From IMG/VR virus record IMGVR_UViG_2778261500_000001: 23,709 bases of DNA; one strand, written 5' to 3'. Every line of letters begins with the position of its first letter. Position 1 is the first letter of the stretch. The translations under genes and the position numbers were made by a program. Shown one piece after another: positions 18,052-23,709 of this stretch. Under the pieces are notes generated by a model that was given only the letters and a program-made list of their open reading frames with translations, was not told the origin of the DNA and made no database searches. The stretch is from a virus (lineage: Duplodnaviria > Heunggongvirae > Uroviricota > Caudoviricetes).

Positions 18052-18881
18052 TACGCAATCTCCAGTTCGAGCTGTGAAGGCTGCAAACCATTCGACAGCC
18101 AATCAGAAACTGAAGGTGGGCGAACAGCTTCAATTGCACCTTTTAAAATTGCGCAACGGTTTTTCAGAATGACAGCTTTCAGCTCCTTTTCCGTCAGATT
18201 GCGCGAATACTCAGCCTCCTGAATAGCCCGCGTCAGCTCAGGATATTTGCTATTAAATTTGGGGACATTGCAGGCAAGATTTGTACTGTCGGCAGTCGCC
18301 AGTGGGTAATTTCCCAACACACGACCGTCAAGCATGCGCAAACCATGAACAGCTGTTTTGAAATTGTGTCGGCAATAAATTGCTTCAAAAGCGTCCTGCA
18401 TACGACGATGCCAGTGCGCAGTTCTGATAGCCGCATATTCACCAGACGATCCAAAGCAGACACGAGGCCATTCACGACATAGCTCGATAAGCCGATCGAT
18501 TGACTCGTGCAGATGCCAGACGGGAGTTGCCTTCCCGTAGAACATTTTCGGAACTTCGTTTATCAGGGCATCATTGTCACGTTCACCTCCGTCCACAACA
18601 TCAGGAATGACAAAAAAAGCGACCTTAGGATGGTGGTAATAGTTCAGGAGCCATTTATAAAAATCACTCCAGTTAATTTTTAGCCCACGCACCCATGCAG
18701 AAAATGCGCCGTTATCAATGCCGACGACCTGAGCGTGCTGAATGGACGCCGCAATCTGATCTGGTCGTACATAGGAGACGAAAGCGCCAGCTCCGCTCAC
18801 CGCAATACGATGAACGTCGCCAGCACTTCCCCAGACAGGCGTCCCATGGAAATGATGAATTCCGTGGTGCATTTCTTTCAC
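18051..18881 (-). CDS. Hypothetical protein, possibly TGT/DpdA-like TIM-barrel (uncertain)
   Basis: 276 aa; GTG start overlaps the Dam stop (GTGA), stop overlaps the A start. Motifs [32 protein letters not shown] are weakly reminiscent of tRNA-guanine transglycosylase-like enzymes; unverified. Confidence 0.45.
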
Positions 18882-19732
18882 ACTTGCACCCCGAAAATAA
18901 CAGTAGAGTCACGTCCCCTACTAAAATCGGCACTAAACCAATTAGCAGATTTAGTGGCAATCATCTCTGTTGCAAATTTTCCCTCCCCCGCTGCAACGCC
19001 GATGCTGCGTTTCGCCCTGATGTAGTGGTGAGTGAAATTACGATAAAGGGACCGGGTCAAAGACGTGTTACTGTTAGAAACAATGACCGGATGTCCTTCT
19101 GATGACCGATGTTCAAGAATGGATGCCAGGTGATACTGATCATCTTCAGTGAAACCATCAGTGTGATAGCCGGAAAACGTACCGTCATAAGGCGGATCGC
19201 AATACACCACATCCCCCACCTTCAACATCGCCAGCGTTTCATCAAAGCTGGCGCAGATAAACGTTGCCCGCTGGGCTTTCTCTGCAAATGCGCGAATTTC
19301 TTTTTCAGGGAAATACGGATTTTTATAATTACCGTAGGGAATGTTGAAATGCCCGCTCTTGTTATAGCGACATAAACCACGGTAACCGTGACGATTGAGA
19401 TACAGGAAATATACCGCTTTCATGAAATCAGTAATTTCAGTGGAGTAATTAAACTCCTGCCTTATGTTGTAATAAGCCACCTCCCTGTTTGCTTCCTCAA
19501 ATAAAGCTCTGGCACGAGATATAAACGCCTCACAATCAGCAGCAACCTTTTTATAGAGGTTGATTAAATCAGGATTAATATCCGCAACAAGATAGCTGGG
19601 GTAATCCGTCTCCATCATCACTGCACAGGAACCCGCGAAAGGTTCAACCAGTCGCGGGCCAGCAGGAAGATGCTTTTTCAGTTCGGACATTATGGCGGTT
19701 TTATTTCCTGCCCATTTCAGGATGGTGCTCAT
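18878..19732 (-). CDS. dam: DNA adenine methyltransferase (Dam family)
   Basis: ORF 18878..19792; likely start [11 protein letters not shown] (ATG at 19732, ATGA overlap with the upstream gene). Motifs KWAGNK, EPFAGS and DPPY are the Dam/D12-class N6-adenine MTase signatures. Confidence 0.85.
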
Positions 19733-19956
19733 ACAGCACCTCCGTTGTAATGTTTGCCTTTCAGCTCTGCGATTTCCTGACAGGTAATGCAAAGCTGCAC
19801 ACCCGGAATGGCACGGCGGCGTGCTGGCGGAATTGGCGCTTCACACTCAACGCAAAGCACGCGGGACACGCCCGGCGTTTTGGCACGGGCAGCACGGATA
19901 TGGCGTTGGCGTTCTTCTTCAACGCGCTGCTGTACGAGATCCATTGCATCAGCCAT
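19729..19956 (-). CDS. TraR/DksA-family C4 zinc-finger protein
   Basis: 75 aa with CVEC-X17-CITC spacing typical of TraR/DksA-type zinc fingers, not the Ogr/B late activator pattern. Confidence 0.7.
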   Translation of the reverse strand: MADAMDLVQQRVEEERQRHIRAARAKTPGVSRVLCVECEAPIPPARRRAIPGVQLCITCQEIAELKGKHYNGGAV

Positions 19957-20256: not shown

Positions 20257-20598
20257 TTAATTCGGCATGGTTAGCCGTCTGGGAAATAAGCTCACCACTG
20301 CACGAAAATGATTCATTGCTTTAATCAACTCCCGCTTTTCGTCAGTGGTCAGCTCATTAATGCTGATGCTATGACGTTCAGCTGGAATTTTTGCCATAAA
20401 GAATATGGCAGCCAGTGCCCGTTTATTTTGTTCATTATTGATATCCCGAGGATCACGCATATCTTTAATAAACCGCTCAAGCTCTGACTCAATATTCAAA
20501 CCAAAAACTTTCGCCCTTAACTCCGCAATATGATTAAGTCCATTCAGGCGTTCACCGGGTCTTAATGGAACAGTCGCCGCAGCGCCTTCAATAGCCAT
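20257..20598 (-). CDS. Hypothetical early-operon protein
   Basis: 113 aa ORF in the cII-to-A early region; no recognisable motifs. Confidence 0.4.
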   Translation of the reverse strand: MAIEGAAATVPLRPGERLNGLNHIAELRAKVFGLNIESELERFIKDMRDPRDINNEQNKRALAAIFFMAKIPAERHSISINELTTDEKRELIKAMNHFRAVVSLFPRRLTMPN

Positions 20599-20762
20599 TT
20601 GTTCCCCCGTTTTTTCGTAGATAGTTCTGCCAGCAATTCATCTTGTGAACGGCACGGATGCCAGCGTTTACCATCCTCACCCATGATCCAGCCGTGACCG
20701 TAGTGCATTGCCGGACTTTGTTTTACCAGCAGCGATGCAAATGATGGTTCTTTCGTCAGCAT
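20562..20762 (-). CDS. Hypothetical small early protein downstream of cII
   Basis: ORF 20562..20792; the ATG at 20762 sits 7 nt after the cII stop, so the start is probably there (about 66 aa). Position matches the small early genes after cII in 186. Confidence 0.4.
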   Translation of the reverse strand: MLTKEPSFASLLVKQSPAMHYGHGWIMGEDGKRWHPCRSQDELLAELSTKKRGNKWLLKALRRLFH

Positions 20763-20769
20763 AAGCACC

Positions 20770-21279
20770 TCACAGCAAACCGAATGAAGCACCGAGGCCA
20801 GTCACGGTATCAACTGCACTCGCCATCGCAGGATTAGCCTGTAAACGGGCCTGCAATGAAACAGCGGCCAGCGCCATCAGTCGTGTTACAGAGTTAATGC
20901 TGCTGATAGCATCACGACGACCTGCACTGGTTTTTACATCGCCAGATACCGCACCTGCAGCAACACGCCCGATCTCTGCGGTTGCACTCATGACATAATG
21001 CGGCAGTTTCTCTTTTGCCACCTCATTAATCGGTACACATGGCAGGCAGTGAATCTGTGCCAGAAAGCCATCTACCAGCGTTGAATCTTCAGTCAGATCG
21101 GTAAGCAACCAGATTTCTGGTGCGGTTAATAAATGAGGTTGAGCTGGGTTCAGCTTGTTCCGCAGAATCTGTACATTCATGCCTGCACGTTCTGCCAGTC
21201 GCACCAGGTTGTGGCGCAGTGCGAATGCACGACAGGCTTCGTCAAAATGTGGATGTTTGGAAACTTGATAATCAAACAT
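20770..21279 (-). CDS. cII: CII-like transcriptional activator (186 CII family)
   Basis: 169 aa; sequence closely resembles phage 186 CII as I remember it ([11 protein letters not shown]...[17 protein letters not shown]...GASFGLL); second gene of the lytic operon. Confidence 0.75.
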
Positions 21280-21311
21280 AGTCAGCCCCTTCCCTTTATT
21301 TCAAAATCGAA

Positions 21312-21533
21312 TCAATTGATTACGACATTGGAATCGGCAAGCGCATCCACTGTCATGGCTGCAATGTTGATCATTACCTTTTCACGTTTTTTATCCTTGC
21401 GAAGACGATGCCGCTTAAGGCGTCCATCTGCGAGCATACTGTTGATAGTGTCTACAGATAACCCTGTGAGTTCACTGTACTTTTCAACCGAAATGGATGG
21501 GACAGCTAATGTGATTGAAATGTGCTGAGTCAT
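21312..21533 (-). CDS. apl: Apl/Cox-like excisionase and switch regulator
   Basis: 73 aa with HTH-like segment KYSELTGLSVDTINSMLADGRL; first gene transcribed from the candidate lytic promoter, divergent from cI. Confidence 0.55.
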   Translation of the reverse strand: MTQHISITLAVPSISVEKYSELTGLSVDTINSMLADGRLKRHRLRKDKKREKVMINIAAMTVDALADSNVVIN

Positions 21534-21584
21534 AAGGCAACATCTCCTGTTTAAGTGTGTTTAACATTGACGAGTAGTTGTAAG

Positions 21585-21658
21585 TCACATTTTGAAATCA
21601 ATGCGACTATAAGATCACAAATTGAAATCGTCAACCATAAAGTTCACAAGGTGAAATC
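21585..21658. repeat. Three 15-bp direct repeats TCACA-N3-TGAAATC at about 30-bp spacing (putative operators)
   Basis: tcacattttgaaatc (21585-21599), tcacaaattgaaatc (21615-21629), tcacaaggtgaaatc (21644-21658), seen directly in the apl/cI intergenic region, overlapping the candidate pR. Confidence 0.55.
21606..21634 (-). promoter_or_regulatory. Candidate lytic promoter pR (sigma70-type) directed towards apl
   Basis: Minus strand reads TTGACG - 17 nt - TATAGT (-35 at 21629-21634, -10 at 21606-21611); apl start lies about 65 bp downstream. Confidence 0.6.
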
Positions 21659-21659
21659 G

Positions 21660-22226
21660 ATGGATTTTAGTCAAGGTGGAAAGAAAGCTATCGAAAGGAT
21701 GGTTGAAGCCTATGGGTTCACTACAAGACAGGCGTTATGTGAACAACTAGGCATATCAAAAAGCAGTCTTGCTACACGCTACATGAGAGATTCATTCCCT
21801 TCTGATTGGGTTATTCAGTGCGCGCTCGAAACAGGAGTAAACATAAAGTGGCTGGTAACAGGCTTACCTCCTAAACATGAATATTTAACGTCTGACATCA
21901 TCAATATTCAAAAAATAAAATTGATTGATGGAGTGCTATTGGATGCAGGAACACTAATGTTTGACAAAGTGTTCATTCCTGATGGTTTATCATCACCATC
22001 TGTGATATCAAACGGGAATAACTCTTATTTTATTGAGAGGGATTTCACAGATGTAGTTGATGGTGATTGGTTAATCTCCATTGATGGAAAGCATTCTATA
22101 AAACAAGTTATTAGAATTCCTGATAATAAAGTTAAGATTAACTATGGGAATATCATTGTTGATATGAACATTAATGACCTTGTATTCATCGGCAAAGTTA
22201 TAGCAGAATTCAAGATAAGAGGCTAA
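21660..22226 (+). CDS. cI: CI-like immunity repressor (186 CI family)
   Basis: ORF 21555..22226 begins with GTG inside the intergenic region; likely true start is ATG at 21660 (MDFSQGG...), preceded by AGGTGA. N-terminal region AYGF...QLGISKSSLATRYMRDSFPSDWVIQCALETGVNIKWLVTG resembles the 186 CI HTH domain as recalled. Confidence 0.75.
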   Translation: MDFSQGGKKAIERMVEAYGFTTRQALCEQLGISKSSLATRYMRDSFPSDWVIQCALETGVNIKWLVTGLPPKHEYLTSDIINIQKIKLIDGVLLDAGTLMFDKVFIPDGLSSPSVISNGNNSYFIERDFTDVVDGDWLISIDGKHSIKQVIRIPDNKVKINYGNIIVDMNINDLVFIGKVIAEFKIRG

Positions 22227-22227
22227 T

Positions 22228-23361
22228 ATGAATATTACTCGATTAAAACTGAAAAATTGGAAAAACTTCAGGAATATTGATGTTCCTCTTCATGACCGTG
22301 TTTACATCATAGGGCCAAATGCTGTAGGTAAATCAAACTTCCTTGATGTCTTTCGCTTTATGAGTGATATTTGTAGAGATGGTGGTGGTTTACAAAAAGC
22401 GGTCAATGATAGAGGTGGCATAACAAAACTCCGTTGTCTTCAAGCGAGAAATGATACCGAAGTAGGTATAACCATATATTTTGAGGAAGACGATAACGAG
22501 TGGATTTATGAACTTATTTTCAAGGCATCTGGCCGAGGGAAACAGTTAATTCACGTCACTAGTGAAAATGTATATAAAAATGGTGAGCATATATTGAGCC
22601 GCCCCAATGCTCATGATCATGCTGATGCTGTTCAGTTGACTCAAACACATCTTGAGCAAATTTTAGCAAATCAAAGTTTTAGAGTGATTTCAGATTTCTT
22701 CACATCTGTTACATACTTGCATATAGTTCCACAGTTGCTCAAATTCGCCAAAGAAATTGGGGTTAATAAAATAGATGATGACCCATTTGGACAAGGGTTT
22801 CTTGACCGATTAGCAAATACTCAAACACGAACCAGAGATGCCTGGCTAAAAAAAATACAAGCAGGGCTATCTATTGCTGTTCCGCAGTTTAAAGAGTTAC
22901 GCTTTGAAAGAGATGAATCAGGGCAACCACACTTAGAAGCAAGGTACGAGCACTGGAGGCCAAATGCTGGATGGCAAAAAGAAGAGCAGTTTTCAGATGG
23001 AACATTACGTTTAATCGGTTTGATGTGGTCACTTCTTGAGAAAAGACAGCTACTTTTAATGGAAGAACCTGAATTATCTTTGAACAGTGAAATTGTGAAA
23101 TTTATACCTGAAATCATTGAAAACACGCTTAAAGGTGCTCGAAATCAAAAGCAAATCATCATTAGCACTCACAGTCCATCGTTGCTAAGTAATAATATCG
23201 ATGGCAATAACATTATTCTATTTACAGCATCTGAAAACGGTACTACAGCGAGAACACCTACAGATGATGAATTGGATGCAATGAGAGTCGGTTTCTCTGC
23301 TGCTGAAATCATGTTGCCTCATACGACGCCTGCCAATATAAGTAAAATTGCAGAGATCTAG
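22228..23361 (+). CDS. ABC-type (AAA_21/OLD-like) ATPase, putative defence-system component
   Basis: 377 aa. Walker A GPNAVGKSN, signature-like FSDGTLR, Walker B-like LLLMEEPE, H-loop ISTHSP, all seen directly. ATG is 1 nt after the cI stop with an AAGAGG SD. Confidence 0.8.
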   Translation: MNITRLKLKNWKNFRNIDVPLHDRVYIIGPNAVGKSNFLDVFRFMSDICRDGGGLQKAVNDRGGITKLRCLQARNDTEVGITIYFEEDDNEWIYELIFKASGRGKQLIHVTSENVYKNGEHILSRPNAHDHADAVQLTQTHLEQILANQSFRVISDFFTSVTYLHIVPQLLKFAKEIGVNKIDDDPFGQGFLDRLANTQTRTRDAWLKKIQAGLSIAVPQFKELRFERDESGQPHLEARYEHWRPNAGWQKEEQFSDGTLRLIGLMWSLLEKRQLLLMEEPELSLNSEIVKFIPEIIENTLKGARNQKQIIISTHSPSLLSNNIDGNNIILFTASENGTTARTPTDDELDAMRVGFSAAEIMLPHTTPANISKIAEI

Positions 23362-23364
23362 TAC

Positions 23365-23709
23365 ATGAAAATTTCAATTGCAACGGAAGATATCTTAACA
23401 GAGGAGGCCATGGTTAAAATCATTGCCTCTAATGGCCATTTTGAAATAAAAAACAAACTAGGCAAACAGGGATGCGGTTATCTAACGAGCAACCTTGAAA
23501 AATTCAACAACTTAGCAGCACTTCATCATGTATTGGTTGTACTTGATTTAGACCTTAAAGAAAATGCAGTTACTTATCGCAGTGAAATCGAAAATAAATT
23601 AAGAAATAAACACGAAAGACTTAAGATAATAATTCCGATCAGAGAGGTTGAAAGTTGGATTTTGGCCGATAGAGGGGGGTTGAGTGATTACTTTAAAATA
23701 TCTAAAGAT
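23365..23709 (+). CDS. TOPRIM-like partner protein (5' part; gene runs off the window end)
   Basis: At least 115 aa, starting 3 nt after the ATPase stop. Acidic motifs ATEDIL, VVLDLD and EVESWILAD resemble the conserved Glu / DxD pattern of TOPRIM-type nucleases. Not in the ORF track because no stop lies in the window; translated by hand. Confidence 0.55.
   Translation, partial: MKISIATEDILTEEAMVKIIASNGHFEIKNKLGKQGCGYLTSNLEKFNNLAALHHVLVVLDLDLKENAVTYRSEIENKLRNKHERLKIIIPIREVESWILADRGGLSDYFKISKD

Follow-up and report, generated by a model that had tools for sequence, protein, structure and literature searches.

Three operator-like repeats across the early promoter of an Escherichia coli prophage are probable binding sites of its 186/HP1-type CI repressor

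The closest described counterparts of the lysogeny switch analyzed here are those of phages 186 and HP1. In 186, CI binds inverted repeats of two types that lie two DNA turns apart (PMC1904263; PMC3675496). The operators of the 186 Apl protein are 6-bp direct repeats, 10-11 bp apart, of which at least three adjacent copies are needed, and they occur between pR and pL and at att (PMC7498355). The C repressors of P2 and W-phi are proteins of about 100 aa that use one pair of 8-bp direct half-sites, 22 or 34 bp apart, in phages that have no cII (PMC1904263). Lytic and lysogenic promoters that face each other (pR and pL) are usual in this phage family (PMC7498355), and the Cox protein of HP1 is of a different type (PMC3448106). 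The HP1 switch contains three GGGTCAATTGACCC-like palindromes of about 14 bp, with spacings of 28 and 31 bp. One is at the PR2 start and the next in the PR2 spacer, and the last abuts the cI ATG. These palindromes are reportedly the CI sites footprinted by Esposito et al. in 1997. Our literature searches found no paper describing the operators of the prophage group to which the present locus belongs.

The DNA under study, a stretch of 23,709 nucleotides that we call the window, comes from a virus of the Caudoviricetes (IMG/VR record IMGVR_UViG_2778261500_000001). Among 5,426 complete E. coli genomes, 17 have this DNA, at 99% identity or more, as a prophage. The RefSeq annotation of the identical E. 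coli prophage (locus L001) includes CI, CII, Fil, a Dam methylase, a replication endonuclease, and an integrase. The genes have the order of the 186 switch, with cI (and int downstream of it) facing apl/cox, cII, and fil (Table 1). The CI protein contains a helix-turn-helix N-terminal domain (PF07022, E = 1e-28) and a C-terminal oligomerization domain (PF16452, E = 1.7e-26), and it aligns over its full length to the 186 CI structure (PDB 2FJR, E = 4e-24). It is 30% identical to 186 CI and 29.7% identical to HP1 CI; in the closest deposited phage, CI is only 47% identical. The apl/cox-like protein has no Pfam match, and its homologues are labelled Cox or Cox-like excisionase in phage records. 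The original prediction, made from the letters of the window, had named a 186-like set of CI, Apl, and CII genes, and the Pfam domains, the 2FJR alignment, and the RefSeq annotation of the identical prophage all agree with that assignment. The Fil-family and DUF5347 ORFs overlap by about 37 nt.

Table 1. Genes, promoters, and operator-like sites discussed in the text, in window coordinates (PWM, score against the operator PWM)
Feature	Position	Strand	Basis or remark
cI, 188-aa immunity repressor, proposed binder of O1-O3	21660..22226	+	both CI domains
apl/cox-like gene, 73 aa, first in the pR operon	21312..21533	-	ORF
cII, 169 aa, 186-type establishment activator	20770..21279	-	PF06892, E = 8.7e-42; RefSeq annotation in identical E. 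coli prophage
Fil-family ORF	20562-20792	-	
DUF5347 ORF	20257-20598	-	
DNA adenine methylase gene	18878-19792	-	
pR, predicted early lytic promoter	21606..21634	-	TTGACG (21634..21629), 17-nt spacer, TATAGT (21611..21606)
pL, putative lysogenic promoter facing pR	21515..21543	+	TTGAAA (21515-20), 17 nt, CAACAT (21538-43)
O1, proposed operator	21583..21599	+	17-mer AGTCACA-TTT-TGAAATC; repeat core 21585-21599; about +1 to +17 of pR
O2, proposed operator	21613..21629	+	17-mer GATCACA-AAT-TGAAATC; fills the pR spacer
O3, proposed operator	21642..21658	+	17-mer GTTCACA-AGG-TGAAATC; upstream of the pR -35
Candidate Apl-type sites TTTAAG (21550), TTTAAC (21560), TGTAAG (21579)	21550..21584	+	T(T/G)TAA(G/C)
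Weak operator-like GATTCGATTTTGAAATA, apl-cII gap, at the 186 FR position	21297..21313	-	PWM 8.2, below null maximum; doubtful
Weak operator-like ATTCAAAAAATAAAATT, inside cI, about 290 bp from O2, at the 186 FL position	21906..21922	+	PWM 9.3; doubtful
Best extra operator-like match, GTTCACAAGATGAATTG	20634-20650	-	PWM 13.1; in the fil ORF

The intergenic region between the apl/cox-like gene and cI contains three copies of the 15-bp pattern TCACANNNTGAAATC (TCACA-N3-TGAAATC). The window contains exactly these three, all on the plus strand, and the second and third lie at 21615-21629 and 21644-21658. Pattern searches and shuffles bear out the three direct repeats of the original prediction, with start-to-start distances of 30 and 29 bp. 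In dinucleotide-preserving shuffles, the mean expectation is 0.01 matches and none of 100 shuffles reaches three, an estimate that is post hoc because the pattern was taken from the same three copies. Allowing up to two mismatches adds a single match in the window, on the minus strand at 20634-20648.

The repeats overlie the start, the spacer, and the upstream region of pR, a near-consensus minus-strand TTGACG-17-TATAGT promoter, as had been predicted. A consensus scan gives pR 10 of 12 matches. Its +1 would be at about 21599, so that copy 1 runs from about +1 to +15, copy 2 sits in the spacer, and copy 3 covers about -45 to -59. The last base of O2 is the first base of the pR -35 hexamer on the opposite strand, an overlap of one base. 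The third repeat had been said to end at the cI start codon; it adjoins the codon, with one base between its end at 21658 and the ATG at 21660. The center and right half of O3 (AAGGTGA, 21648-21654) likely double as the cI Shine-Dalgarno sequence. Relative to the CI sites and the cI start, pR has the position of the annotated 186 pR and HP1 PR2, and transcription from it would run into the apl-like gene, cII, fil, and the early genes beyond them.

Each repeat is the core of a 17-bp pseudo-palindrome with a 7-3-7 arrangement once it is extended by two flanking bases, a partial dyad symmetry that the original prediction had missed. The half-sites are G(A/T)TCACA, then three central bases, then a half whose complement reads GATTTCA. 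They match at three of seven positions in O1, five of seven in O2, and four of seven in O3, a modest degree of symmetry, and the three sites together span 76 bp. The repeats look direct because all three asymmetric sites share one polarity, and the direct-repeat appearance is not a sign of a different recognition mode. From the sites, the CI family, and the relatives described below, we consider the repeats to be, most likely, operators O1-O3, at which the CI encoded by the prophage itself acts in a 186/HP1-type switch.

We place the lysogenic promoter pL, by positional homology, at a candidate that aligns column for column with the annotated 186 pL (TTGCGA-17-CATGAT) and HP1 PL (TTGCAT-17-TAAACT). 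The candidate has 8 of 12 consensus matches, which is under the threshold of the consensus scan, so it is absent from the scan output. If correctly placed, it faces pR, with the two starts about 49 bp apart. The -35 hexamer of the candidate is inside the first codons of the apl-like gene, and its -10 is between the apl-like ribosome-binding site and ATG, where the stretch GCAACAT is kept in nearly all relatives.

We collected 47 related loci in scans of IMG/VR and GTDB genomes, in which the CI N-terminal domains are 70-86% identical to that of the window. Three sites are found at the same places in about 45 related prophages. Eleven distinct sequences (from Kluyvera, Yersinia ruckeri, Rahnella, and viral contigs) form class A, in which the sites of the window are in place with spacings of 30 and 29/30 bp. 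Among these 11, mean pairwise identity is 0.91 for O1 and 0.89 for O3, compared with 0.51-0.74 for the intervening gaps; the pR hexamers are at 1.00 (-10) and 0.97 (-35). In O2 of the relatives, the left half is invariant and the right half is variable (0.65 identity). The central xGG of O3 is kept in classes A-C. An operator PWM built from 18 distinct class-A sites, with a null maximum of 12.2 +/- 3.2, gives scores of 22.7 for O1 and 26.5 for O3.

At these three positions, the sequences of other lineages are different and have been altered as sets. The L019 group has TCAC..GTGA palindromes, the L021 group has TTGCTTTTGGAATC at all three positions, and L032 has CACGAAACGTG. The L037 group and phage vB_EcoM-813R9 have the perfect palindrome GTACCCAATTGGGTAC, together with GTACCCAAGTGAGATC. 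Site 1 is in the opposite orientation in the L030 and L033 groups, and therefore polarity is not fixed in the family. Such concerted changes, including palindromes and flips, fit symmetric operators that are bound by dimers and have diverged in immunity specificity.

The conservation also bears on whether the repeats bind a protein at all. They could be a product of chance, of a recent local duplication, or of promoter architecture alone, and the post hoc nature of the chance estimate speaks for such an origin. We find it scarcely credible, since the sites are kept across Kluyvera, Yersinia, Rahnella, and other prophages while the gaps between them diverge, and since the three positions change in concert in other lineages.

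The original prediction took the direct orientation of the repeats to suggest recognition of the P2 C type. CI would then read the sites head to tail, each 15-mer being a polar, non-palindromic half-site for one subunit, with DNA bending to bridge them. Several features resemble P2 and W-phi, in which direct repeats two to three turns apart lie over an early promoter and the promoters are face to face (PMC1904263). Each of the 11 class-A variants has its three sites in one and the same polarity, a uniformity that purely symmetric dimer sites would not need; the roughly three-turn spacing is near the 34 bp of the W-phi C direct half-sites (PMC1904263); and the dyad of O1 is weak. The likeness ends with orientation and spacing. 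The CI of the window has 188 aa, two domains of the 186 family, and no homology to the P2 C proteins of about 100 aa; a cII gene (PF06892) is present; and there are three 17-bp pseudo-palindromes rather than one pair of half-sites. The P2 half-sites are 8 bp long (PMC1904263), whereas 15-17 bp is the usual size of a dimer site. In classes B, E, F, and G, in which the CI N-terminal domain is 70-86% identical, the sites are perfect or near-perfect palindromes or O1 is flipped. The three-turn spacing is no evidence for recognition of the P2 C kind, given that HP1, whose repressor is of the CI family, has a three-turn layout. Taken together, these findings leave a P2 C-like mode of binding quite improbable, and the inference from direct orientation is not supported.

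The uniform head-to-tail polarity of class A may still have a function of its own. The class-A CI could read two half-site sequences, GATCACA and GATTTCA. The first of these is on both sides of the sites in class B/G relatives, and GATT(G/C)C, which is near the second, is on both sides in class D. Reading of two half-sites would have a precedent in 186 CI, which recognizes sequence types A and B. If so, the wrapping of DNA on a CI oligomer could be made directional by heterotypic sites that share one orientation and a three-turn register. We regard a functional polarity as unlikely.

Whether CI or the Apl-like protein is the binder can be approached through co-variation. In 33 distinct loci, divergence of the sites follows that of the CI N-terminal domain (Mantel r = 0.84, p <= 0.0005, partial r = 0.83), compared with r = 0.21 (p = 0.036, partial r = 0.11) for Apl in the same loci. 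Operator specificity thus co-varies with the DNA-binding domain of CI, although linkage may explain part of the co-variation: the operators adjoin the 5' end of cI, and mosaic exchange would pass on the two together. The Apl-like protein changes very little between operator classes. It is 100% identical in L007 (class A) and L026 (class C), and 99% identical in L008 and L023, and in both pairs the sites differ. The CI proteins of these pairs have SKSTLATRY versus SKGTLANRY or TKGTMANRY, residues that would fall in the recognition helix according to the standard helix-turn-helix motif.

The repeats had also been proposed as a target of Cox/Apl-type recognition, in which the Apl/Cox-like protein would repress pR through a direct-repeat array, as recombination directionality factors do. 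The 186 Apl protein does repress pR (186 record annotation; PMC7498355), and the arrays of 186 Apl and P2 Cox share with the window repeats a direct orientation and a role in the pR-pL region. Those arrays consist of five to seven 6-bp units spaced by 10-11 bp and are found at att as well (PMC7498355), whereas the repeats are 15-17 bp long and 29-30 bp apart. The repeats also reach upstream of pR, while Apl operators lie between pR and pL. There are no operator-like sites in the int-att region of the identical prophage, where the best PWM score is 7.2, inside the int coding sequence. With different sites in loci whose Apl is 99-100% identical, and with the sites tracking the CI N-terminal domain and not Apl, we judge it very unlikely that the repeats are the sites of the Apl/Cox-like protein, and this part of the original prediction is not upheld.

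A separate set of short motifs occupies the expected Apl position. Three T(T/G)TAA(G/C) motifs, phased 10 and 19 bp, lie between the putative pL start and O1; this is three matches in 35 bp, versus a background of 1.56 per kb. TATAAC, TTTAAC, and TGTAAC, with 19-bp phasing, are found beside the Int arm-type sites (AGTGGCGACA and AATGGCGGCA) downstream of int (L001 12471-12514). Relatives have TTAnnAGTG-type 10-bp repeats where the window has T(T/G)TAA(G/C). By their spacing and location, these motifs appear to fit Apl better than the 15-mers do, and we list them as candidate Apl sites.

The following scheme for the proposed CI operators draws on analogy with 186 for CI binding, stoichiometry, cooperativity, oligomeric state, and the effect on pL. 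Each operator would take up one CI dimer, with contacts made by the helix-turn-helix N-terminal domains. The sites lie about three turns from one another, on roughly one face of the DNA, so that dimers linked by the C-terminal oligomerization domain could fill all of them in a cooperative manner. In this state CI would extend over the pR start at O1, the spacer and the -35 edge at O2, and the region farther upstream at O3, occluding pR. With pR silenced, apl, cII, fil, and the replication genes would be off. Interference on the weak facing pL would also be relieved, as in 186, and the pL transcript would read through the operators to reach cI.

We searched the window with the operator PWM for distal sites like FL and FR of 186 and found only sub-threshold matches, none of them kept consistently in relatives. 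The site in the apl-cII gap has counterparts in only some relatives (scores of 14.9 in L008 and L029 and 8.8 in L010). The site inside cI is below the null maximum and has a counterpart in no class-A relative. The best extra match, in the fil ORF, is not conserved in relatives.

O2 starts with a GATC (21613-21616), which is two bases away from the pR -10 and is shared by 39 of 41 relatives, in all operator classes. The left half of O2, GATC(A/G)C, is kept even where the sequences of O1 and O3 change entirely. Because this half is constant across classes, O2 is constrained by something besides CI specificity. The GATC could possibly make pR or CI binding sensitive to Dam methylation. An association of the GATC with a phage dam gene is not supported, as a dam homologue is present in only a minority of relatives in the flanking DNA examined. 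Host Dam would methylate the site regardless of a phage dam.

The relatives show further variation around the switch. CI is a mosaic, with N-terminal domains that are 70-86% identical to that of the window and C-terminal domains that are only 30-42% identical, even in loci with nearly the same operators (L007-L047). Avoidance of mixed oligomers between co-resident prophages is one possible reason for the C-terminal divergence. In L037-L047 and L051 (phage vB_EcoM-813R9), the cI ATG overlaps the pR -35 (ATGTCAAC), 33 nt further upstream, and because of this upstream start the third operator is within the cI coding sequence. Several relatives (L030, L031, L032, L037-L047, L048, and L051) have a short GC-rich hairpin, GGCTTGTGG(C/T)GAGCC, that is absent from the window; it is located about 60-90 nt upstream of the first operator, in the DNA that separates this site from the apl start.

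Between cI and int there are genes for an AAA_21 ATPase (22228-23361) and a DUF4276 protein (23365-23709, continuing past the end of the window; L001 10116-10712). They match the PADLOC candidate defense pair HEC-01A (E = 5.5e-154) and HEC-01B (E = 6e-63), and in the lysogen the pair would share a transcript with cI. An unannotated ORF of 124 codons (L001 11887-12261), which lies outside the window and downstream of int in the identical prophage, encodes YTGPGGGx ten times in tandem and then a short unique tail.

For an uncharacterized 186/HP1-like immunity type, the analysis names a concrete set of operators, two promoters, and a repressor. Variants are present in several genera, among them Kluyvera, Yersinia, Rahnella, and Klebsiella, and the relatives have at least eight versions of the operators at positions that do not change. 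This natural series of CI N-terminal domains and operators could be used to map the specificity determinants of the repressor family, and to test the 186 wheel model on a three-turn operator register.

The window shares with 186 the two-domain CI family, int and cI facing apl-cII-fil, and face-to-face pR and pL. In the 186 record, three CI sites are annotated (23011-23067); as in the window, they reach from the cI start codon over pR, and the second of them is in the spacer. The 186 sites lie within 57 bp in a two-turn register, and the window differs in its span and in the spacing of 29-30 bp that is also found in all class-A relatives. The distal sites FL and FR of 186 are defined and about 300 bp from pR, one on each side, whereas the window has only weak, unconserved candidates. 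The 186 CI forms a 14-mer wheel, to which the CI of the window is linked by homology of the C-terminal domain only.

The layout is closest to that of HP1, whose CI is of the same family. The three sites of the window are placed like the three palindromes of HP1 with respect to the promoter start, the spacer, and the cI ATG, and their distances are alike. HP1 differs in that its sites are near-perfect palindromes of a sequence unrelated to the window sites, and in having two tandem lytic promoters (PR1 and PR2); cII was not found in the HP1 stretch examined. Phage ESSI2_ev015 has three TTCGATTTAATCGA-type sites with spacings of 33 and 28 bp. The original prediction had suggested a hybrid switch and a comparison with the operator maps of 186 and P2. 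With a CI of the 186 family and a three-site, three-turn layout that is known in HP1, a hybrid is not supported, and the comparison places the window with HP1 and not with the single pair of half-sites of P2. The window has the layout common to 186 and HP1, three related sites from the pR start to the cI start codon with the middle one in the spacer, and on its sequence it is most likely a new immunity type of ordinary layout within the known 186/HP1 class of CI switches.
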